Shown: positions 6,046-55,112, counted from the stretch's first letter. The stretch: DNA of 64,000 nucleotides from an uncultured bacterium (GCA_913009835.1 CAJVXH010000001.1:1992-65991), one strand, 5' to 3'. Translations and numbers: made by a program. Notes: generated by a model from the letters alone, not told the origin.

Positions 6046-6657
6046 TCATCGACCCAGAGGGCAGAATCCGGAATTCATTCCTCTCCCCTGGCCTACGCCA
6101 TGGGGTCCGAATCCACCAGATTGGTAACGGTTGCCATAACCCATCCCGGGTCCCTGGCCTGTTCCTCGTCCCCGGCCAGTGCGATTAAGATTGCCCTCAC
6201 TTCTTTCTTTTGCCGCCTGGGCGTGACGAATGCCGAGTTCTTCCCACTGTTCGTCCGTAAGAATCTCTTGCATCTGTTCTTGTTGTGAGAGGTGGTTCCG
6301 TCCCATCTCCAGCCTCATTTCATCCATCCTCTTTTGAATTACTCCGAGACGTTCCCGGTTTGCATCAGTGTCTTCCGCCAGCTTTATGAACTCCTCACGC
6401 AACTCATTTTGCTCTCTCTGCATCTTGATCTGCTTCAGCTCAATGTCCTTCTGCATGTCAAGAATTCGTTCGAGTTGACTGTCAGTCAAATCTGGCAGGT
6501 TGGCGATGCCTTGCCCCATACCGAATCCTGGACCGTTGCCAAATCCTCCGCCGTTTCCGTGTCCTCCTCCGTTCATGGGCTGGGCGTCGGCAGTCGCTGC
6601 AAACATGAATCCCGCCATGATTACCGCTATAATCATGAGTTTTGAAACGTCTTTCAT
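6046..6657 (-). CDS. Periplasmic Spy/CpxP-family (LTXXQ motif) protein, Gly-rich
   Basis: 203 aa with a signal peptide (MIIAVIMAGFMFAATADA), two LTXXQ-like motifs (LTDSQLERIL, LTDEQWEEL), a coiled-coil segment and Gly-rich termini. Confidence 0.55.
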   Translation of the reverse strand: MKDVSKLMIIAVIMAGFMFAATADAQPMNGGGHGNGGGFGNGPGFGMGQGIANLPDLTDSQLERILDMQKDIELKQIKMQREQNELREEFIKLAEDTDANRERLGVIQKRMDEMRLEMGRNHLSQQEQMQEILTDEQWEELGIRHAQAAKERSEGNLNRTGRGRGTGQGPGMGYGNRYQSGGFGPHGVGQGRGMNSGFCPLGR

Positions 6658-6805
6658 CTTCCCATCTCCTTCAGTTCAGCTTCTATGTGCTGTGGTTGAA
6701 TGTATGTGCGCGTATCACGCTTCAGATAATGGACGCGCAAAGTGGAGATGGGTTTAATCGAGGGGAGAGTTCAGGGGGAGACTACTCTGAATCGAACAGT
6801 TTTTT

Positions 6806-7340
6806 CATCCTGAATGACATGCAAGTCATCGCTGAACGAAGTGAAGGATCTCGTCTTTGACCTGCATTTCATCCCAGACATAAATGTCTGGGGCACGAAA
6901 TCGCGTCATCCTGAACGAAGTGAAGGATCTCGTCTTTGACCTGCATTTCATCTCAGACATAAATGTCTGGGGCACGAAATCGCGTCATCCTGAACGAAGT
7001 GAAGGATCTCGTCTTTGACCTTCATTTCATCCCAGACATAAATGTCTGGGGCACGAAATCGCGTCATCCTGAACGAAGCGAAGGATCTCGTCTTTGACCT
7101 GCATTTCATCCCAGACATAAATGTCTGGGGCACGAAATCGCGTCATCCTGAACGAAGTGAAGGATCTCGTCTTTGACCTGCATTTCATCCCAGACATAAA
7201 TGTCTGGGGCACGAAATCGCGTCATCCTGAACGAAGTGAAGGATCTCGTCTTTGACCTTCATTTCATCCCAGACATAAATGTCTGGGGCACGAAATCGCG
7301 TCATCCTGAACGAAGTGAAGGATCTCGCCTTTAACATTTT
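6806..7340. repeat. Tandem array of about 6.5 copies of a 79-bp unit
   Basis: Unit gtcatcctgaacgaagtgaaggatctcgtctttgacctgcatttcatcccagacataaatgtctggggcacgaaatcgc. Unit starts at 6905, 6984, 7063, 7142, 7221 and 7300, exactly 79 bp apart, with degenerate first and last copies. Each unit contains the palindrome cccagacataaatgtctgggg. Confidence 0.9.
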
Positions 7341-7402
7341 GAGAAAAAATGGATTGTCTGAGGAAATACCACGATTACTTGATGTGTTGAGTGAAGCTCT
7401 AC

Positions 7403-10342
7403 CTAGTCCTCAGCATTAGGATCGCCATCGAGGAACCAGGACAAGGCTTTGAAGAGGCTATCATAGTTGGAAAAGACTTGCGGCTTGACCGGCAACGAAT
7501 CAACCATGATGCGTCCCCAGCGCGATTGAACCAGCCGCGGATCGCATAGGATAGCTACTCCATAATCATCAGTTCGTCGTATCAGGCGTCCCAATCCCTG
7601 CCGCAAACGGAGTATCGCCTCAGGAACAGTGTACTCGATGAACGGATTCCCACCCTCGGCCTTGATCTTCTCTGAACGTGCTTCGACCAGCGGATCATTG
7701 GGAACGTGGAATGGCAGCTTGGCAATTATCAGAAGCTCGAGCGATTCACCGGGAACGTCTATCCCTTCCCAGAAGGAGTCCACTCCAAAGAGAACGGACT
7801 TTCGTTCCTCCCGGAAGCGGTCCAGCATTTCAGCCTGAGAGGCGCCCACTCCCTGCGCAAACGTGCTCCATCCCTGCCGTTCGAGCATTGGGGAAGCCTG
7901 ATCGTATGCGTCTCCCAGCATTTTCTGGCTGGTAAACAGGATCAGCGAACCGGCATCCAAGTCAATGGGCAGATTCTGGGCGAGCCGGGCAACGCCTTCG
8001 ACGTATTCGTCGAGATTTCCCTTTGGCACACCCAGATAATCGACCACCGCGATAAACATCTGGTCGGCCATCTTAAACGGTGTCTGGTAGATAACTCCCT
8101 TGGCATCTGACAGTCCCAGCCTTTTCCGCATGAAATCAAATTTCTGCTTGACGGTGAGGGTGGCTGAGGTCAATACGATCGACTCAACTTTGGGGTATAG
8201 CAGCTTTTGCAGGACAACACTCACATCCAGTGGTGCGGAGTTAAGGGTAACACCGGCCCGTGCATCTCTGCCGATACTATACCATAACACCGTGTTTTCC
8301 GGTTCAGAGCCAGTCAACAGTATGAAGGCATCCGCAATAGCTTTCAGCTCCACGCGAATGGATTTGAGCCTGCCGATAACATCATCACCTTCGATGAGCG
8401 GATCTTCTGCTTCCGAAAGAATTTCAAGCAGTTTGTCCAGTTCACGGAGTACACTCGAGAACGCTCGTTGATGGGCGAGGATGGCATCCTTAATCGGCTC
8501 AAATACTGATTCGCCGCTGATATACCGAACAGAGCGTCCGTAGTAGCGGTTCTTACTTTTTGATTCGGCCTCTTGTTTTATCGAAAGCAGTCCGTACAAT
8601 TCGCCATGAAAATGATCGCCGGTGCGATGAATGGTGGTGATTGCGTCAACCAGACGATCAATCGGACCGGGCTCATCGACGTTTTTACGTTCGAGCGGCG
8701 TTTCGAGCAGAGGTTGCAACGCTCTCAGGGCCATCAACAAACCGGGCCGTTTGGCTGAAGCATCGTGCATCTGGGTGAGCAGATTGCGCAACGGTACATA
8801 GTGGTAGTTCAATCCCAAGTGTTTCGCAGCGATGTCCTCGATGTGATGGGCTTCGTCAATTATCAGACGGTCGTATTCGCCCAGCACCGCTCCATCACTG
8901 GCCAGATCGCTGAACAGCAGGGCATGGTTGATCAACACCACGTCCGCGCCGAGTGCTGACATCCTGATACGATGCAGGAAGCATCCTTCGCTAGCACGAC
9001 AAACTCGATTGGAGCAGAATCCGGAATCGGCGGACAATCGCGGCCACAAACCGCGCACCAGCGACTGACGCACTCCCGGTGCTTCGTTCACATCACCTGT
9101 TTTGGTACGATTCAGCCAGCGCACGATTGGTAACAACGCCAATCGGTCTGTAGGTTCGAGCGCCTCCGGTTCATTGACCAGAGAGTCATAGCGCCTTTTG
9201 CAGATGTAATTGCCACGTCCCTTAAGCAGGACTGCACGAACATCTCCACTGAAAGCCGCCTCGAGATACGGCAGATCCTTCTCGAAGAGTTGATTTTGCA
9301 GGTGACGAGTGTTGGTTGAGATGACAACTCGTCCGCCTCCGGCGCGAGCGTGCATCAGGGCGGGAAGCAGGTAGGCTAGGCTTTTCCCGGTACCGGTACC
9401 CGCTTCACAGATTAACTGTCCACCGTTTTCAATGGTTTCGTGGACATCCCAGGCCATGTCAGCCTGGCCATGTCGCATCTCGTAACCGGGCACCTGCTTG
9501 GCGATGAGACCATTCTCATCGAAGAACGCGGCATAAGTGTCAGCATCAATCTGTTCCGGCTTGTCAATAGCTTCACGTGTCTGACCGAGCGTGGAAAAAT
9601 CTCCGATGCGATTGTCAGGCAAATTATTGGGGGTCCACACGCCTTCGGGGCCGGGTCCGATGGTAAGCAGTCCATCAATGATGGAACCGAGGGCGAAATT
9701 GGTCTGTCCCAGAATCCTCAGCATCTCGCGCAATTCGCCGGGTGGCAGACGGCGAGCTCGTGCCAGCAACTCGAGCAGGACTTTTCCTGTGGCGTCAGCA
9801 TCATCGGTTGCACGGTGGGCGTTTGACAGAGCAACACCCAATTGACGCGCCATCGCCCCCAGCCCGAATCGACTGAATTCTATGGGAAAGAGGCTGCGTG
9901 CAACGTTCAAAGTGTCATAGACTTCGCCCGGTGGGGCCATCGGCGCGTCTTCCGGAATTCGCAATAATTCAGCATCGAGGAAATCCAGGTCAAACTTTAC
10001 ACTCTGCCCGAGGATGGGGGATTCACCGAAGAAGGCAATAATCTCCTCAGCGAGATCCTCGAAGCGTTTTTCATTCTCCAGGTCGCTGTCGGTGATACCG
10101 GTGAGGCGGGTAATAAATGCGGTCAGCTTTTCGTCCACATGGAGCAATTTGCTGCAACGTTCGGTCTCTTCCCCACCCACAAACCTGACCGCACCGAATT
10201 CAATCATGCGGCAGGATTTGGCGTCGAGCCCTGTTGTCTCAGTGTCGAAGGCAACGAAGTCTGCCAGCCCGAGTCGGGCGAGCTCCTCAGGTGTCAGTGG
10301 CGCAGGTTCGGGCAGGCTCAGTGTCAACTCCCAGGGATGCAA
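7403..10342 (-). CDS. dinG: Bifunctional DnaQ-like 3'-5' exonuclease / DinG-family ATP-dependent DNA helicase
   Basis: 979 aa. N-terminal Exo I motif FVAFDTETTGLD; helicase motif I ICEAGTGTGKSLAYLLP; DEAH box IIDEAHHIED; C-terminal helicase domain. Confidence 0.85.
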   Translation of the reverse strand: MHPWELTLSLPEPAPLTPEELARLGLADFVAFDTETTGLDAKSCRMIEFGAVRFVGGEETERCSKLLHVDEKLTAFITRLTGITDSDLENEKRFEDLAEEIIAFFGESPILGQSVKFDLDFLDAELLRIPEDAPMAPPGEVYDTLNVARSLFPIEFSRFGLGAMARQLGVALSNAHRATDDADATGKVLLELLARARRLPPGELREMLRILGQTNFALGSIIDGLLTIGPGPEGVWTPNNLPDNRIGDFSTLGQTREAIDKPEQIDADTYAAFFDENGLIAKQVPGYEMRHGQADMAWDVHETIENGGQLICEAGTGTGKSLAYLLPALMHARAGGGRVVISTNTRHLQNQLFEKDLPYLEAAFSGDVRAVLLKGRGNYICKRRYDSLVNEPEALEPTDRLALLPIVRWLNRTKTGDVNEAPGVRQSLVRGLWPRLSADSGFCSNRVCRASEGCFLHRIRMSALGADVVLINHALLFSDLASDGAVLGEYDRLIIDEAHHIEDIAAKHLGLNYHYVPLRNLLTQMHDASAKRPGLLMALRALQPLLETPLERKNVDEPGPIDRLVDAITTIHRTGDHFHGELYGLLSIKQEAESKSKNRYYGRSVRYISGESVFEPIKDAILAHQRAFSSVLRELDKLLEILSEAEDPLIEGDDVIGRLKSIRVELKAIADAFILLTGSEPENTVLWYSIGRDARAGVTLNSAPLDVSVVLQKLLYPKVESIVLTSATLTVKQKFDFMRKRLGLSDAKGVIYQTPFKMADQMFIAVVDYLGVPKGNLDEYVEGVARLAQNLPIDLDAGSLILFTSQKMLGDAYDQASPMLERQGWSTFAQGVGASQAEMLDRFREERKSVLFGVDSFWEGIDVPGESLELLIIAKLPFHVPNDPLVEARSEKIKAEGGNPFIEYTVPEAILRLRQGLGRLIRRTDDYGVAILCDPRLVQSRWGRIMVDSLPVKPQVFSNYDSLFKALSWFLDGDPNAED

Positions 10343-15460: not shown

Positions 15461-15742
15461 AAACAGGCCCGTGTTTGCTCGCATCCGGTTATCCAGTTGC
15501 TTCAGCTGGGGTTGCTTCTTGCCCCAGACATTTATGTCTGGGATGATCCGACGATGAATATGCCCCTGTTACCGCCGCAGGCGATAGCAGGGTTGATCCG
15601 CAAGTTACAAGGTAGGTGTTTGTTTTCTCAGGACTAAGGACCACAGTTGAATAATCCCTGCGAACCGCCAAAAAGACGGCGGGTCACAGGGGCATGTCAA
15701 ATAGCTGAGTTATCTGGATAACCGGATGCTCGCAAACGCAGA
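15461..15742. repeat. Roughly 280-bp repeat element copy B, inverted relative to copy A
   Basis: Reverse complement aligns with 1239-1520 over nearly its full length. Contains the cccagacatttatgtctggg palindrome shared with the 79-bp tandem unit. Confidence 0.7.
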
Positions 15743-17162: not shown

Positions 17163-17199
17163 ATTGTGTCATCCTGAACGAAGTGAAGGATCTCATAGT
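17163..17199. repeat. Solo copy of the 37-bp A-module of the 79-bp repeat unit
   Basis: gtcatcctgaacgaagtgaaggatctcatagttgacc matches the first half of the tandem unit. Confidence 0.5.
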
Positions 17200-17358
17200 T
17201 GACCTTACTATCAGCCCAAGAAAATATGTCTCGGAGCACTTTGAACGGACTCAATTGTTTGTGATATTCGCAGCCGTTTGGTAGAGACAAGATGTTGTCC
17301 AGGTACGTTGAGTTGTGTTGATTCTCCAGATTTGACATGTGTGAGACATTTGTAGTTT

Positions 17359-17431
17359 GAGGATGTAGCTCAGTTGGTAGAGCAGGGGCCTTTTAAGCCC
17401 AAGGCCGAGGGTTCGAGTCCCTCCATCCTCA
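17359..17431 (+). tRNA. tRNA-Lys (anticodon TTT)
   Basis: Hand-folded cloverleaf: acceptor gaggatg/catcctc, D-stem gctc/gagc, anticodon loop cttttaa (TTT), T-arm gaggg-ttcgagt-ccctc, discriminator A. No encoded CCA. Confidence 0.85.
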
Positions 17432-17432
17432 C
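17386..17432 (+). repeat. attL core (3' part of tRNA-Lys) of the integrated island
   Basis: 47 bp from the anticodon stem to the tRNA 3' end is repeated, with 3 mismatches, at 54763-54809. Confidence 0.6.
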
Positions 17433-17442
17433 TTGAATATTA

Positions 17443-17479
17443 AGGACTTACGGTTACTCCGTGAGTCCTTTTTCTTTTC
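17443..17479 (+). terminator. Rho-independent terminator following tRNA-Lys
   Basis: 12-bp stem aaggacttacgg/ccgtgagtcctt (one G.U pair) followed by tttctttt. Confidence 0.55.
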
Positions 17480-17480
17480 A

Positions 17481-17503
17481 TGGCACACTAGTGGCACACT
17501 CAG
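17481..17503 (+). promoter_or_regulatory. Putative integrase arm-type binding site (2 x tggcacact), left end
   Basis: tggcacact-ag-tggcacact sits just inside attL. A near-identical 23-mer occurs just inside attR at 54631-54653. Confidence 0.4.
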
Positions 17504-17531: not shown

Positions 17532-18629
17532 TTGTTACATGAGGTGACCATGGCAACGATACGCAAACGTACTACCAGAGACGGGTCTGTTTCCTACCAC
17601 GTTCAGATTCGGAAAAAGGGATTCCCCACCGAAACCACGTCCTTCTCCAATTTGACTCATGCCAAACGCTGGGCAAACCAAACTGAAACTGATATGGATG
17701 AAGGGCGTTACTTCAGAAACACTGAGGCGAAACGTCACACGGTCGAAGAAGCAATTGACCGATATCTGAAAGAAGTCCTTCCAAGGTATAAGGACCAAGC
17801 AAAACCATTGGTCCATTTGCGATTCTGGAAAGAGCGGATCGGGCACATGCTGCTGTCCGAACTGAAGACCGCAAAGGTTGTTCAGGAACGTGATCGTCTT
17901 CTTCGTGATGACAACCATCCAGGTGCAAAGATGAATCGTTCCTTCGGTCCTGCTACAGCGAACAGATACACCACCTCCCTCTCCCGTGTGCTGTCAGTAT
18001 GTGCTCGTGACTGGGGCTGGCTCGAGCAATCCCCGATGCGAGGCTTCAGGAAGCTGAAGGAAACACGTGGTCGTGTTCGCTATCTGTCCGATGATGAACG
18101 AGCTCGCATTCTGGCAGTTTGCCAAAGCAGTTCAAATCCCGACCTTTACCTTGCAGTCATACTCGCACTTTCAACCGGAGCTCGAAGAAGCGAACTGTGG
18201 AATCTCCGCTGGTCACAGATCGACTTGGCTGGTCAAAAAATCATCTTGGACGAAACAAAGAACGATGAGCGTCGCGTGCTTCCTATTTTTGGCAAGGCTC
18301 ATGAACTCCTGACCGAACGATCCATTACGCAACGCCGTCTTGATACCGATCTCCTCTTCCCTGGTCGAACAAATCCCAAGATTCCACAAGACCTCACTCA
18401 TCCATGGCAACGCGCTATCCAGGAAGCGAAAATCGTGGACTTTCGCTGGCACGACCTCCGCCACAGTGCAGCAAGCTACCTCGCCATGTCTGGAGCAACA
18501 CCTACTGATATCGCGGCAATCCTTGGTCACAAAACCTTGCAGATGGTCAAACGGTATGCACACCTCAGTGAACCACATACTGCAAGTGTGGTAGAGCGGA
18601 TGAACAAAAAATTTATGGGTGAATCGTGA
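17532..18629 (+). CDS. int: Tyrosine-type site-specific integrase
   Basis: 365 aa with a C-terminal catalytic region WHDLRHSAASYLAMSGATPTDIAAILGHKTLQMVKRYAHL (R..HxxR..Y pattern). The likely true start is MATIRKR at 17550. Confidence 0.9.
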   Translation: MLHEVTMATIRKRTTRDGSVSYHVQIRKKGFPTETTSFSNLTHAKRWANQTETDMDEGRYFRNTEAKRHTVEEAIDRYLKEVLPRYKDQAKPLVHLRFWKERIGHMLLSELKTAKVVQERDRLLRDDNHPGAKMNRSFGPATANRYTTSLSRVLSVCARDWGWLEQSPMRGFRKLKETRGRVRYLSDDERARILAVCQSSSNPDLYLAVILALSTGARRSELWNLRWSQIDLAGQKIILDETKNDERRVLPIFGKAHELLTERSITQRRLDTDLLFPGRTNPKIPQDLTHPWQRAIQEAKIVDFRWHDLRHSAASYLAMSGATPTDIAAILGHKTLQMVKRYAHLSEPHTASVVERMNKKFMGES

Positions 18630-19750: not shown

Positions 19751-20312
19751 TCCATACAGCAGATTTGTTCAAGCACTTAAATCGAGAGGTTTGCTCGTCT
19801 CAGAGAGAGATGGGAAGGGAACTGCTCGTTGTCCAGCACATGATGATCGGCATGCATCGCTTTCATTCTGTCGTGGTGATGACGGAAAACTACTCGTCAA
19901 ATGTCATGCTGGATGTGAGTTTGGAGACATCATGCACGCGTTAGGACTAGAACAAACTGATGCATTTATTGAGAACCTCAATGGAAATGCCCATCATAAT
20001 AGTACCGTGAATATCAAGAACAAGACCAAGCGCAAGAAAGTTGCGGAATACATCTATCGGGACGAACATGGCATAGAACAGGCACGGAAGGTCAGATTTT
20101 CCGATAAGTCATTCTCTTGGATACGAAACGGCAAGTGGGGCTTGAACGACTGGAAGCCACCGCTCTACAACCTTCACCTGTTGTACCAAGACAAAGACAG
20201 TCCCGTGTTGATGGTGGAAGGGGAAAAGGATGCCGACACACTCACACGTCTTGGATTCCTTGCTGTTTCGCCGCCAAACGGTGCGAGTATTAACCAGGTG
20301 TTAATAAAATGA
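19689..20312 (+). CDS. Primase N-terminal part: zinc-binding domain plus the first half of Toprim
   Basis: CPAHDDRHASLSF...VKCHAGCEFGDIMHALGL is a CHC2-like Zn finger. LMVEGEKDADTL is the Toprim catalytic Glu. An alternative start lies at 19740 (MRVDPYSRF). Confidence 0.6.
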   Translation: MNSSSIDGWLNKLRSRTMRVDPYSRFVQALKSRGLLVSERDGKGTARCPAHDDRHASLSFCRGDDGKLLVKCHAGCEFGDIMHALGLEQTDAFIENLNGNAHHNSTVNIKNKTKRKKVAEYIYRDEHGIEQARKVRFSDKSFSWIRNGKWGLNDWKPPLYNLHLLYQDKDSPVLMVEGEKDADTLTRLGFLAVSPPNGASINQVLIK

Positions 20313-22126
20313 AAGATGAGCATACAGCAGCGCTGAAAGGTCGAGAAGTATACGTCCTATGCGATAATGACGAGGCTGGATTCGCTCACCAGCTCTTGGT
20401 TGCTCATGCGCTTCATGGCAAGGCTGCACGAGTCTACACTGTGGAGCCGTTCGACACCCTTAAGGGCGAGGGTGGTGACGTAACTGACTGGGTTAATGAT
20501 CACGAACGAGAGGGGCGTGCGCAGAACGAGATCGCTGAGCTAATTGCCGAAACGTGTTCCCCACTCCACCGAGCTATCTTATTCGATCTGGAGAGCCCTC
20601 CACCATGGAGTATTGGATTGGATCAAAACACTCCGAAAACGTGTGACTTGTATGACAGTTCTTCTTGGGAGGAGCCGTTACCCCTGGACACCTTTGATCT
20701 CCGGGAATTGCCCGAAGACTTGCTCCCTCCTCCCCTTGGCCCAATGGTGTCAGCAGTCGCTCGATTCATAGAGGTTCCACCTGAGATACCCGCATTGACG
20801 ATATTTGCTATTGTCGCAACAGCGGTCCAAGGAAAGTATCGCGTTCAAATTCGCGAGGGACATCATGAAGAGCTGTCGATCTGGACAATGTCTCTCGCTG
20901 AATCAGGTGAACGAAAAACCCCAACTCTGGACCGACTTCGTATTCCATTGGATAAGTGGAAACACGATAGAGCGGCTAGTATTGCATCGACAATCCGGGA
21001 AGCAAAAGCCAAACGGGAATTGCAGGAACGTGCGATAAAGATCCTGAAGGAGCAAATTGAGATTGATGATCCTGATGAGCTTCAAGACGCAGCGTATAGG
21101 GTTGCAGATATGGAGGGTGCTCTCTCCACTATTCCGGTTCCACCTGAAATCTATTCGAACGACATTACTCCTGAGGAGTTGGTAGTCCGTATGGCGGAAA
21201 ACCATGGATGCATGGCCATAATCTCCGACGAGGCGGGCATGTTTGACACTTTGTCCGGACGATATGCTCAAAAAGGCGGTGTGAACCTTGATGCTGTGAA
21301 CTCGGGATGGAATGGCGGTAGAGTATCCAGTCATCGAAGATCTCGCGAGGCAATCCACATTGAACGTGCATACTTGTCATTTGCCCTGACCGTACAGCCT
21401 GATGCGGTTTCCGCAATGGCGGAAAAGGAACGTATGCGGTATCGAGGTTTCCTTCCCCGGTTCCTCTTTGTCATTCCACGGTCGAGAGTAGGATATCGAA
21501 CGAATACTGGACCAGCTATTCCATATTCCGTGCAATTAGAATATGAATCGACCATTCAGGCTCTGTTGGATATTGAACATTGCGATAGTGAGTCCGATGA
21601 AGATTATTCTGAATCCACTCCAAGAGAGTTGACCTTGTCGAAGCAGGCTTTCGCACTATTCCATGAGTTTTGGACGGAAATTGAAAAACAACTGCGAGAT
21701 GGCAACACCTTGGAAGGGATTCGGGAATGGGGAAACAAGTTCCCTGGCAACATTGCCCGGATAGCGGGTCTTCTCCATCTCTCTATATACGCCAAGAGCA
21801 CAATTCCATCCGAGATTGCTGCGTCCGAAATGAAGACCGCCATCAAATTCGGCAGCCTCCTCATCCCACACGCTTTAGCTGCCTTCAATCTTCTGGACGA
21901 ACCGGCACTTTATAAGAATGCCCGTTATCTACTCGGATGGATCAAACGCGAACGGTTAACCACATTCAAGACTCGAGATGCACAAAGGCGAAACCAGAGA
22001 CGATTTCGTCAGGCAACGCTTCAACCAGTTCTGAAAGAACTTGAGGAGCGAGGATACATCCGTAGTGGTGAAGCCGATGATCCCCGCGTCAAAATATGGG
22101 AGGTCAATCCTTGTTTGTTTTCCTGA
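20309..22126 (+). CDS. Primase C-terminal part: second half of Toprim (DxD) plus a DUF3987-like domain
   Basis: Begins with VYVLCDNDEAGFAHQ (Toprim DxD), followed by a large P4-alpha/DUF3987-like region. Overlaps the upstream ORF by 4 bp in a different frame. Confidence 0.6.
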   Translation: MKDEHTAALKGREVYVLCDNDEAGFAHQLLVAHALHGKAARVYTVEPFDTLKGEGGDVTDWVNDHEREGRAQNEIAELIAETCSPLHRAILFDLESPPPWSIGLDQNTPKTCDLYDSSSWEEPLPLDTFDLRELPEDLLPPPLGPMVSAVARFIEVPPEIPALTIFAIVATAVQGKYRVQIREGHHEELSIWTMSLAESGERKTPTLDRLRIPLDKWKHDRAASIASTIREAKAKRELQERAIKILKEQIEIDDPDELQDAAYRVADMEGALSTIPVPPEIYSNDITPEELVVRMAENHGCMAIISDEAGMFDTLSGRYAQKGGVNLDAVNSGWNGGRVSSHRRSREAIHIERAYLSFALTVQPDAVSAMAEKERMRYRGFLPRFLFVIPRSRVGYRTNTGPAIPYSVQLEYESTIQALLDIEHCDSESDEDYSESTPRELTLSKQAFALFHEFWTEIEKQLRDGNTLEGIREWGNKFPGNIARIAGLLHLSIYAKSTIPSEIAASEMKTAIKFGSLLIPHALAAFNLLDEPALYKNARYLLGWIKRERLTTFKTRDAQRRNQRRFRQATLQPVLKELEERGYIRSGEADDPRVKIWEVNPCLFS

Positions 22127-22981: not shown

Positions 22982-25900
22982 TCATGAGAAAAGATGATCG
23001 GGATTCGAGGTCGAAATGATTTGTGTCGCACCCACAATGAAATAAACGGATTCTATCTTGGGATTCTCATAGCTGTGTTCCCGGGTGAACCATTTCAGTT
23101 CGCATATCCAGCAGAGTTTTGCATGATGCTGCTCTACGAACTTGTCTATCACATCTCGATTCAGTGTTAGAACACTCCCATGACGAAATGGCATGTCGGC
23201 AATCTGCTTATCTTCCAACCCTTCTGTCCAGTCATACCATTGCGCTAATGCGGAATCCTCAACTTTGTAGATGATTTGATCCTGTTGAACATCAATTTGA
23301 ACTGTAGATTCTGCCAGCTGAGGATGCAGACCTCGGATTCTATCATCTAGTCGCCATGCTTGCCACCTGGGAGATGTATTTGGCCATAGCTCCGCTGAAA
23401 TTGGGAGAAGACTCCATCCGCCAAGTTGGAGTAATCCCTTTGGCGAGATTGAATCATCATAGCTGCCTGCGAACCTGCAATCACCAACGGTTGGTCTCTG
23501 TAGACCATAGCGTTCCATCGCCCCGAAGATGGCTTCATCAGAAATCCTATCTGAATCTGTACACCATTGAAGAGCACCCATGATTGTTACCTGAAATATC
23601 GTTCCAGATTTTTCACCGAGCCTCCCCTTCGCATAGCCCAAATAACCTTGCTTGGTTTCTAGTTTTAGTTCGTCCAACGTTCTCGATATATCCCCCGGCA
23701 GAGTATCAACAATCACCCCGGAGTCTTTATCAACACTGGGCCACCAAGCTGGAGAGCGACGAGGTTCGAGGGAGATTAAACTCAGATCGGTAGGTAGAGT
23801 TTCAATCGCGAAATTTCGTGCAGTTTCATCATCTATTTGCTTTGACGTTCTGAGCCACGTCAATAATCGGAGATACCCACTGATTGCACTCTCGTTAATT
23901 TTGATCTCAAAAGAAACGATATGTTCTGAATCTTTCCGCCCGTAGTGGCTACTAGCACTAAAATCAACATCTGTACGTTCTACTACCTTATTTGTTTCGT
24001 ATGCCCATCTCTGGAATAGATCAGTTGGGATGTTTTTCATCATATGTCTTAGGTGTCCCCGGATGAATCCCGGGACGATTGGGTAATGCCGCTCCCAGGA
24101 TTTCGGAGGACTGAACCTCATAACCGTAGAATCATCATGTTCTATGGAAGCAAGCCTAGTTTTCTGACCATACAATTCAAACAGCAGGTAGTCAGACAAC
24201 ACGCTGTGATATTGAATAGCTGCAACCAAAGCATCATAGTCGGGTAGCTGCGCGCCGTACTTCTCTTTTGCAACCAGCAACGTAAACAAACCGGTCGCAA
24301 CCCTGGTTTCCATATCTTGCTCTGAAAACCAGCTAATGAAAAAGTTTATCACTGTTCCGTTCTGTTGCTCATCGCCCAGTAGTTTGGCGATCTCAACGAC
24401 AGCTCTTTCTCGAACCATACCTGAGGGAGCTATCAGTCTGGAAAACAGCACACTCAGCGCTGTATTGTCGCCTTGGACCGGATCGATGATCCATACAGAT
24501 GGAGGAAGTTTAAAGGGTGATACCAAACCATGAAGAGTTATCATAACTCCAGAAATAAAGTCAGATGCGCTTCTACTTTGGTTCATTTTACATAAAAAAC
24601 CTACTATGTACCGTATCTCTCTATGTATCCCAAAATATCTATAATAGTATGGCATATGATAAACTAGTTCCCTTAAAATATCTCTCCAATTATTGTTGTA
24701 GTGATTCTTAATGATATCGAGTACATTTAATATCTCTTCTAATCTTGTATTCCAAGAACTCAATATTTGTTCTTCTTTACAGCATTCAATGAATATGGGT
24801 AACGCTTGTTTACGACCATATTTGCGGACCTCAAGATCATATCGAATGAAACCTGGTTTAAAATACGATTTCGTCTTGGAATAGTTGTCAATTGCTTCGA
24901 TGATTTGCTCTGGATCGATTTGCGTTTCCCAATGGGAAACCCACGGTTTAAGCCTGTCTGCATCATTGTAGATATCAGCATCAGAGCATGCTTGAAAGTA
25001 TTCATTCAGTTTGAGTGGAGGAAAGTTCGCTGGATCGGGTGGTGACTTAGATGCTGAGCTGGATCGTTTTTCCTGCAACTCTTCATCACTCTTCTTGCTT
25101 ACCCTTACGCCATAGTATTCTTCCAACTGTTCCATGATGTGAGCGGCAGCTGTGTCACCTGAACTTGCTCGTTCCCTAAGCCAGTTCCAAGAATCCTCAT
25201 CTACGCATGTACAGCCGATGGCAGCATAGATTGGATCGCTGAAGTCAGCCATTTCAAGGATGTTCAGAAAGTGTCGTTCAGCCCTGTAATACTCTTCACC
25301 TTCGATGAAATACAGATAGTACGGTGCGACGAGTTCGGGGTACAACCTGCGCAGGCTTGATCCGTAGTTTAGGGGAAAGTGCCTGGTCTCTTTACCATCC
25401 GTGTACTCGTCTATGCTGTCGAGTACTGGTGCAAGCTCAACCAAAGTTGATCTAATGAACTGTGCGTCGAGTGTATTGCGGTTTTCCTCCAAGGACTCAA
25501 GAATGTCATGGATCAATATGTCCTTTCTGTGACCATGAACGATGCAGAAGTCGATGAATGACCTTAATGCGCTGGATGCATATTCGGTCTTCCCGTTGAT
25601 GGCGAACACTGATGATATTGTTGCGTAGTTATATGCACCATCTGTCGAAGCAAATTCCACATCAGTCGCGCAGAATTGATCTCTGTTCTCATACAACCAA
25701 TCGAGAGCTCTTTCGGAAAGCCAAGTGAGTCTCCTGTCTTGCAAAAGCACAAGAATATCAGTGATGAAGGAGTGGGGGGAATTTGTCAATTCTATCAGGT
25801 CTTGATCTGAAATCGTCAGTCTAGTACCAACGGTAGTTGAAATGAGCATGGAATCAAGAACGATACGTAGGAAGACTTTGCGGAATGATTTCCCGTACTC

Positions 25901-54294: not shown

Positions 54295-54630
54295 TGCTCC
54301 TTGTCTATTTTAAATGTGATCTAACAGAGTCTCCAGCGATTCATCGAAAATCGAGACTTGAAATGATTCAGGCTCATTCGATCCAATTCTCAACAGAAAT
54401 TACAACAACCGAAAATTACTGCAATTGTGACTAGATCCATACCCTGGCGACTTGTTTTTACTTCAATAAGATAATCCATTAGGGTCATTCTATTTCGAGT
54501 CACACTTTACTATAACCTCGGACACGAGTGAAAAGAGCTGTCTTCACACGCAGCGTTTGCTTCTATTGTTTCTCATTGAATGCTGAATAGCCTCGAGGCT
54601 AACGTCGCTTACGATCTAAAGCAGTTCCCA

Positions 54631-54653
54631 TGGCACACTGGTGGCACACTCAG
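54631..54653 (+). promoter_or_regulatory. Putative integrase arm-type binding site (2 x tggcacact), right end
   Basis: tggcacact-gg-tggcacact, identical apart from one spacer base to 17481-17503. Lies 110 bp inside attR. Confidence 0.4.
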
Positions 54654-54762: not shown

Positions 54763-54809
54763 GGGTCTTTTAAGCCCAAGGCCGAGGGTTCAAGTCCCTC
54801 CATCCTCAC
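54763..54809 (+). repeat. attR: partial duplicate of the tRNA-Lys 3' end
   Basis: gggtcttttaagcccaaggccgagggttcaagtccctccatcctcac matches tRNA positions 28-73 with 3 mismatches. Confidence 0.6.
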
Positions 54810-54853: not shown

Positions 54854-54978
54854 TGCTATAGTCATTCTCAAAAGTACAGCACGCTGTCAGTCATTCTGAA
54901 AACGTGGACGGAGTTTTTTTACCGCCAACGTTTGAAGCACAGCCTGGGATGAAATCCTGGGTGTCAATGGGCTTACGT

Positions 54979-55112
54979 GTGTCATCCTGAGCGCAGCGAA
55001 GGATCTCTCGTTTGACGTTTTCATTCTTCATTGCCGAATGGCAATGGATAAGGCCGCTGCTGGAAAACAAAAGTCAAACGAGAGATACTTCATTACATTC
55101 AGGATGATGGCA
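54979..55112. repeat. Inverted pair of the repeat A-module forming a roughly 130-bp hairpin (MITE-like)
   Basis: gtcatcctgagcgcagcgaaggatctctcgtttgac ... gtcaaacgagagatacttcattacattcaggatgatgg are imperfect reverse complements, with a central palindrome ttgccgaatggcaa. Confidence 0.5.

Follow-up and report, generated by a model that had tools for sequence, protein, structure and literature searches.

A 79-bp tandem array of co-oriented hairpins in an uncultivated Bacteroidota genome, probably an amplified Ssn-type repeat

The window analyzed here, a 64,000-nucleotide stretch of DNA from an uncultured bacterium (GCA_913009835.1 CAJVXH010000001.1:1992-65991), contains an intergenic tandem array between two minus-strand genes, one encoding a DinG-like exonuclease-helicase and the other an LTXXQ/Spy-CpxP-like (hereafter Spy-like) protein (Table 1). 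A previous reading of this DNA, made from the sequence alone (the sequence-only reading), had placed the array in relation to these two genes correctly: it lies 71 bp past the stop codon of the DinG-like gene and 168-675 bp before the ATG of the Spy-like gene. In public records, the Spy-like protein carries the label 'Bacteroidetes/Bacteroidota bacterium', from MAGs. Tandem Repeats Finder (TRF) reports this as its sole array, at 6825-7332, with a period of 79 bp, 6.4 copies, 97% matches, no indels, and a score of 972, and the repeat heads fall at the exact 79-bp unit starts that were described earlier.

Each unit consists, in order, of a 27-nt module A (GTCATCCTGAACGAAGTGAAGGATCTC), a 16-nt linker, module B (TTCAT plus a hairpin), and an 8-nt tail. 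The module A 27-mer, for which the chance expectation is zero (100 shuffles), is found at the starts 6905, 6984, 7063 (one mismatch), 7142, 7221, and 7300. The 21-nt palindrome that forms the core of module B occurs within the array five times exactly and once with one mismatch. Between successive heads lie 52 nt of filler that are 97% identical across units, and four distinguishing substitutions mark individual units. We consider the array to be noncoding because 79 is not divisible by 3 and the longest ORF within it spans 61 aa; look-ups of the ORFs inside the array returned no exact matches on record. Regular spacing and a palindromic element in every unit are also what a degenerate or orphan CRISPR-like array would present. 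Here, however, the 52 nt between heads are uniform, with no unique spacers, and the neighboring genes are the DinG-like and LTXXQ genes, with no adjacent cas-like gene. A filler that is itself repeated excludes a CRISPR, which bears out the earlier statement to that effect, and we regard a CRISPR-like origin as having a negligible chance of being correct.

Table 1. Positions of the array, its modules, the flanking genes, and dispersed module copies in the window
Feature	Position	Strand	Remarks
LTXXQ/Spy-CpxP-like protein, 203 aa	6046..6657	-	Hydrophobic N-terminal stretch; Pfam LTXXQ 26.4 bits (cut-off 24.3); ATG at 6657
Partial 5' module A copy ('stutter' copy), TCATCCTGA	6805..6824	+	20 nt ahead of the first head
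Tandem array	6825..7332	+	7 module A heads and 6 module B hairpins, all co-oriented; TRF and repeat families D1-D3
First module A, degenerate, GTCATCGCTGAACGAAGTGAAGGATCTC	6825..6852	+	One inserted G disrupts the stem; 3 mismatches
Module B, 31 nt	6869..6899	+	TCAT tag and 8-9 bp hairpin, CCCAGACA-TAAA-TGTCTGGG
Module A	6905..6931	+	GTC tag, stem ATCCT/AGGAT, tandem G.A, mini-stem AC/GT, GAA loop, C after palindrome
Module A	6984..7010	+	
Module A	7063..7089	+	T>C in mini-stem (1 mismatch)
Module A	7142..7168	+	
Module A	7221..7247	+	
Module A, final copy	7300..7326	+	Array ends without a right (inverted) arm
Further module B copies	6948-6978, 7027-7057, 7106-7136, 7185-7215, 7264-7294	+	
DinG-like exonuclease-helicase, 979 aa	7403..10342	-	RNase_T, DEAD, and Helicase_C_2; stop at 7403
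Module B copy in one copy of a 268-nt repeat	15516..15546	-	97% match; families I3-I9; palindrome at 15522, opposite strand
Solo unit	17165..17240	+	Exact module A (17168) and decayed module B; family D2, 79% identity; just upstream of tRNA-Lys
Module A inverted doublet, 126 bp	54982..55107		REPIN/MITE-like; 39-nt arms, 82% complementary; encloses a TTCAT-tagged hairpin; family I2

Copy-number variation, which the sequence-only reading had raised as a possibility, is supported by contigs from other assemblies, with the proviso that an effect of short-read assembly could explain the differences. The identical Spy-like protein is encoded on three other contigs, and the array or part of it, with identical flanks, is present in five contigs (the window, L001, L002, L003, and L272) that derive from at least four separate assemblies. 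In L002 (GCA_011043795.1, contig DRDN01000608.1), a contig of 4.6 kb, the array comprises 7.4 copies. Over 4607 aligned columns, L002 differs from the window by 0 mismatches and one 79-bp insertion, and the extra unit duplicates the unit that bears a C>T variant. In the ENA assembly ERZ909563, two contigs share the array, one ending and the other starting at this same variant unit, implying that the sample has two or more such units. A Logan contig terminates in the first array unit, and three contigs terminate inside the array. Contig ends of this kind within short-read assemblies, together with the one-unit difference between two assemblies, could alternatively indicate an assembly artefact in which one or a few units were expanded by the assembler. 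This explanation is very unlikely: array sequence with identical flanks recurs in four contigs besides the window, the order of the four unit-specific substitutions agrees between the window and L002, and similar arrays are found on unrelated metagenome contigs (see below). Either the copy number of the array varies in whole units, or short reads and their assembly misresolve it. In practice, the array breaks short-read assemblies, and it is a candidate VNTR marker.

Module A can be folded as ATCCT / GA / AC-GAA-GT / GA / AGGAT, in which a 5-bp stem leads through tandem G.A mismatches to a 2-bp mini-stem capped by a GNA triloop. The local hairpin is not significant in nearest-neighbor DNA folding (z ~0), although such models score sheared G.A pairs poorly. 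For module B, folding the T-variant copy (the 31-mer at 6948-6978) as DNA gives a significant hairpin (z = -4.3). The recurrence of the two modules elsewhere in the window, which had been noted before, was confirmed, with module A at 17168 and 54981 (the latter with three mismatches to the 27-mer) and the core of module B at 15522. Because module A and module B are both dispersed, the array unit is a composite of two dispersed hairpin modules. The doublet that begins at 54982 has a markedly stable predicted RNA fold (z = -6.9, either strand). With its inverted arms the doublet resembles a MITE, whereas the array units, on inspection of the array sequence, have no right arm; no target duplication was evident at the doublet or at the other loci inspected. 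Upstream of the doublet, at 54862-54900, two partial heads, AGTCATTCTC and AGTCATTCTGA, lie 29 nt apart in a 'stutter' pattern like that found in other phyla.

The 268-nt repeat that holds the dispersed module B copy is present as two inverted copies (1251-1518 and 15469-15736) that are 87% complementary, each with its own terminal inverted repeats of 33-35 nt. Each copy holds a module-B-related hairpin, and the change between CCACGA/TCGTGG in one and CCCAGA/TCTGGG in the other is compensatory, so that pairing is kept. The repeat is MITE-like. In a separate observation, the segment 17359-54809 (~37 kb) resembles an integrated island. It opens with tRNA-Lys (17359-17432), a tyrosine integrase (17532-18629), and a DUF3987 protein (20309-22126), and a 47-nt copy of the 3' half of the tRNA, 96% identical, marks its far end (54763-54809). 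A second direct repeat, of 25 nt, is found at 17479-17503 and 54629-54653, and the G+C content of the island is 0.43-0.47 versus 0.51. Copies of module A lie just beyond each end of the island (17168 and 54981). The GC skew of the plus strand is negative across most of the window, including the surroundings of the array, a signal that is confounded by gene orientation; should it reflect replication, leading-strand synthesis would use the motif-bearing strand as its template.

The distribution of module A extends far beyond this genome. We scanned one genome per species with a 25-nt pattern, GTCATYCTGARCGNAGYGAAGRATC, that has five degenerate positions and leaves the paired positions free, and it matched at least 120 stretches. 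The matches listed come from Nitrospirae, Saccharibacteria, Gracilibacteria, Chloroflexota, Acidobacteriota, Bacteroidota, Firmicutes, Planctomycetes, Omnitrophota, Verrucomicrobia, Proteobacteria, and further groups. Among the 151 matches listed, 147 have a Watson-Crick outer pair (81 C-G and 66 T-A, against four mismatches) and 144 a Watson-Crick inner pair (115 G-C and 29 A-T, against seven mismatches), and all four combinations of outer and inner pairs are present. The covariation of these two free stem positions indicates that the module A hairpin forms. The consensus of the class is GTCATYCTGA-RCGNAGY-GAAGRATC. In about 45% of the matches listed, an inverted right arm follows within 250 nt, giving a median element of ~88 nt, and in the right arms the mini-hairpin is often replaced by a longer, variable hairpin. 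A partial direct copy of the 5' half is located upstream (at 18-24 or 33-47 nt) in 21 of the 151 matches listed and downstream in none of them, a feature that the left edge of the window array shares.

Queries of the literature with the motif as a DNA, RNA, or peptide string yielded nothing relevant. Two readings of its CTGA...GAAG pattern were rejected, as a hammerhead core (CUGANGA...GAAA) because the NGA is absent and as a K-turn because the 3-nt bulge is absent. The motif does account for spurious ORFs and protein tails encountered here, such as ...VILNEVKDL..., ...HPERSEGS..., and ...DSSLRSE. At one locus (L064, 2720-2880), a head and right-arm doublet lies apparently in frame within a sigma-54-activator-like reading frame (...IEKAVILSEAKNL...); a natural 'AVILSE' coding sequence there resembles a head, which hints at insertion beside a look-alike sequence.

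A link between module A and a known enzyme family emerged from the genes that such elements enclose. In three of the loci (L005, L030, and L099), ORFs of 93-98 aa with a GIY-YIG domain (Pfam PF01541) sit exactly between the left and the right arm, and in four more families (P0053, P0092, P0022, and P0029; L245-L269) the left arm lies upstream of the gene and the right arm downstream. A Planktothrix plasmid carries a 68%-identical gene with module-A arms and three 23-nt stutter copies. Overall, module-A-type arms occur on both flanks in all eight of the small GIY-YIG genes sampled. A profile search found at least 7986 relatives of these small proteins, some of which end in C-terminal tails (...DSSLRSE*) that are the translated right arm. 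In the surroundings of P0053, P0092, P0022, and P0029, the number of adjacent mini-elements differs among strains.

SsnA is a 94-aa single-domain GIY-YIG (cd10448) nuclease (Chenal et al., Nat Commun 2025, PMC11893778). According to that work, SsnA requires the oriented hairpin repeat NTS (CGTCATTCCCGCGMAVGCGGGAATCYRG) to be single-stranded for binding and cleaves a few nucleotides upstream of it (PMC11893778). For cutting, the three nucleotides before the palindrome (the GTC tag) matter; for binding, the C right after it does; and the loop is dispensable (PMC11893778). A typical ssnA gene is flanked by 'Ssn-related motifs' (SRM; PMC11893778). The protein encoded at L005 is 46% identical to an ORF of N. 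gonorrhoeae (E = 4e-16), which itself has 94 aa and retains Y6, Y17, and E64, the positions at which SsnA was mutated; seven canonical NTS/SRM matches surround this ORF. Given the arms around the GIY-YIG genes and the homology of their products to SsnA, module A is, in its architecture, an Ssn-related motif.

The published SRM string, HGTCWYN(0-2)YYVSBRHN(0-5)WNVSBRGN(0-2)RNCYNB, matches NTS but neither module A nor its cross-phylum consensus, and its sole match in the window is an unrelated site at 23413. In module A, six exact or near-exact copies read GTC-ATCCT...AGGAT-C, so that the tag, the palindrome, and the following C are all present. With these three features in a sequence that the published string fails to match, module A forms a variant class among such motifs, and the SRM definition, as published, misses what appears to be the most widespread motif class, GTCATYCTGAGCGNAGCGAAGRATC. 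The modules and palindromes of the sequence-only reading are real; what it overlooked is that module A is a cross-phylum hairpin of a kind that flanks Ssn-type genes. Within the 64-kb window itself, a tblastn search with 120 Ssn-like proteins found no Ssn homolog (best E = 0.12). A search for relatives of the GIY-YIG proteins among viral contigs gave one weak, uninformative match, NCBIfam has no specific family for Ssn-like proteins, and the PDB yielded distant UPF0213 structures only and no SsnA structure.

Several of the Ssn-like genes have surroundings of interest in their own right. On the P0053 contigs (L245-L254), the gene is positioned between dnaA and dnaN, and samples differ in their numbers of flanking hairpin doublets and small extra ORFs, with right arms by themselves duplicated in tandem in some cases. 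The Planktothrix agardhii gene (L271; plasmid NZ_LR882964.1, 18247-19713), with its module-A arms, stands in a defence island between an MmeI-type restriction-modification gene and the DISARM gene drmA, and its three 23-nt partial heads precede the downstream motif. The gonococcal record (L270; NZ_CP119142.1), which is 2.17 Mb long and filed as a plasmid, has no ATG at the position of the ssnA-like ORF that would give 94 aa, suggesting that this ORF may use an alternative start.

To place the array among other arrangements of the motif, we scanned metagenomes for two co-oriented cores 55-85 nt apart and obtained at least 120 loci. Among the 120 listed, the longest co-oriented run is two copies at 88 loci, three at 20, four at five, five at five, six at one, and seven at one, and the periods of the arrays listed are 33, 38, 58, 68, 69, 72, 76, 79, 81, 84, and 153 nt. 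The arrangement in these arrays is (head + lineage-specific spacer)n, and a proper right arm closes some of them. In a genome sample drawn without regard to tandem copies, a co-oriented neighbor is lacking at 117 of 120 loci, a pair is present at three, and a run of three or more at none, which indicates that arrays of at least three heads are an unusual arrangement for this class. The (head + spacer)n architecture therefore recurs, and seven heads are at the upper end among the matches listed. One array, with five copies of a 153-nt unit (L237, 3380-4120), shares only the core CTGAGCGCAGCGAAG; its flanking stems differ (GGTG...CCCAAC), and it may represent another motif subclass.

The position of the array ahead of the Spy-like gene invites the question of whether it affects expression. 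One possible reading is that the array is cis-regulatory for the Spy-like gene, in which a stress regulator would bind the palindromes as operators or enhancers and the copy number would tune expression, in line with the earlier suggestion that copy number modulates this gene. The location of the array 168-675 bp upstream of the ATG, the perfect 8-9 bp palindrome in each unit, and the difference in unit number between assemblies all fit this reading. Set against it are the occurrences of the modules at unrelated intergenic sites, namely, upstream of tRNA-Lys, beside the end of the integrated island, and inside another repeat, and the identity of module A as a cross-phylum motif tied to Ssn nuclease genes. 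Moreover, sites spaced 79 bp apart would present successive copies on opposite helix faces, and no sigma-70-type promoter or intrinsic terminator was predicted in 6400-7600, in a scan that does not cover Bacteroidota-type promoters. The earlier suggestion thus finds no backing here, and we judge a cis-regulatory function to be quite unlikely.

A second reading assigns the array a role at the RNA level, with hairpins in the 3' UTR of dinG or the 5' UTR of spy serving as a terminator, an insulator, an mRNA stabilizer, or a source of small RNA. The array may be transcribed, given the minus-strand orientation of both neighboring genes; module B forms a stable hairpin; and REP elements, to which the repeat bears comparison, stabilize upstream mRNA. 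Yet the 6400-7600 scan predicted no terminator-like site, and the complete unit, folded as RNA, is not unusually stable on the two strands (z = -1.6 and -0.9). In a whole-window search of Rfam at gathering thresholds, only tRNA passes, and even at E <= 10 the region 6650-7450 gives chance matches and nothing meaningful. The exceptions to module A pairing show no strand bias among the matches listed, with six of the G.T type and five of the A.C type, and SsnA showed no interaction with RNA in the assays reported by Chenal et al. (PMC11893778). An RNA-level role therefore also seems unlikely. We found no positive evidence for either reading and no link in the sequence between the array and regulation of the Spy-like gene, and we infer that any effect of the array on the Spy-like or DinG-like gene is incidental.

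The closest known system is that of Ssn and its NTS/SRM repeats, as described in PMC11893778. In both, the repeat carries a 5' GTCAT tag, its palindrome starts with AT and contains a GNA-type loop region, and the nucleotide that follows the palindrome is a C. They flank small single-domain GIY-YIG genes on both sides, with proteins homologous to gonococcal SsnA, and they are dispersed in intergenic DNA with clusters near genes. Unlike the published motif, module A fails the SRM string, and its stem is broken by tandem G.A/A.G mismatches followed by the 2-bp mini-stem and GNA triloop. The array also differs in its homogeneous, co-oriented layout and in the second hairpin that every unit carries; the host is a distant one, the tblastn search showed no ssn gene in the window, and cutting by an Ssn enzyme is putative.

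The closest known architecture is that of the neisserial NIME arrays, in which dRS3 hairpins alternate with RS elements, the filler measures 19-214 bp, and length and number vary among strains (Bentley et al. 2007, PMC1797815). About half of the dRS3 copies are NTS, the target of Ssn (PMC11893778). The array resembles NIME arrays in its intergenic hairpin-and-filler construction (heads 79 bp apart, 52-nt filler) and in the one-unit difference between contigs with identical flanks. NIME arrays, however, are a mosaic of many RS families with NTS in mixed orientation (+ - + - around gonococcal ssnA), whereas the window array has co-oriented heads and a single 52-nt filler, 97% identical throughout. 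REP/BIME/REPIN repeats with their RAYT (TnpA-REP) enzymes provide a functional analog. There, too, extragenic hairpins with a 5' tag form singlets, inverted doublets, and arrays, and single-stranded hairpin DNA is the substrate of one small enzyme whose own gene has the repeats on its flanks. In the present case, by contrast, the enzyme is a GIY-YIG protein rather than an HUH/Y1 transposase, the tag is GTCAT rather than GTAG/CGTC, and the heads are co-oriented, whereas BIME arrays alternate in orientation. Mycobacterial MIRUs and the boxB units of pneumococcal BOX elements are intergenic VNTRs, and the array is like them in having intergenic tandem units of 40-100 bp from a dispersed repeat family and whole-unit copy change between close strains. 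For neither family do we know of a link to a dedicated nuclease or of a motif conserved across phyla.

Taken together, the motif class, the covarying hairpin, the flanking of Ssn-family genes, the dispersed solo and doublet copies, and the one-unit difference between contigs argue for an Ssn-type reading. The array is probably a small, noncoding, nonautonomous, selfish hairpin repeat of the Ssn type that was amplified in tandem, in the manner of a NIME or VNTR, to at least six or seven copies, with cutting by Ssn as a putative component. Motifs of the module A type flank Ssn genes of ~94 aa and spread as solo copies or inverted doublets, and units in an array could be gained or lost through in-register slippage or unequal recombination, possibly assisted by nicking. 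If the genome encodes a cognate Ssn, the seven co-oriented heads would fold whenever the top strand becomes single-stranded, as in replication, in repair, or in incoming DNA, and the enzyme would bind each head and place a nick a few nucleotides to the 5' side of GTCAT. In that case, the locus would amount to a cluster of strand-specific cut sites for single-stranded DNA that may limit or redirect recombination, as the NTS repeats of Neisseria do. A more speculative proposal, which we consider doubtful, is that homogeneous co-oriented arrays and the 20-nt stutter copies are themselves footprints of Ssn activity: repeated, strand-specific nicks immediately 5' of each hairpin would lead, through re-priming or template switching, to duplication of DNA in unit register, so that the elements build their own arrays and thereby create strand-specific barriers or hotspots of recombination for incoming single-stranded DNA in phyla far from Neisseria.

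These findings place an uncultivated marine Bacteroidota genome, along with a motif class found in many phyla, within the system of Ssn nucleases and hairpin repeats. Tandem arrays in unit register and upstream stutter copies, neither of which appears in the main text of the Ssn paper (PMC11893778), bear on how such repeats multiply, and the seven co-oriented natural sites at this locus would be a ready substrate for tests of Ssn enzymes.
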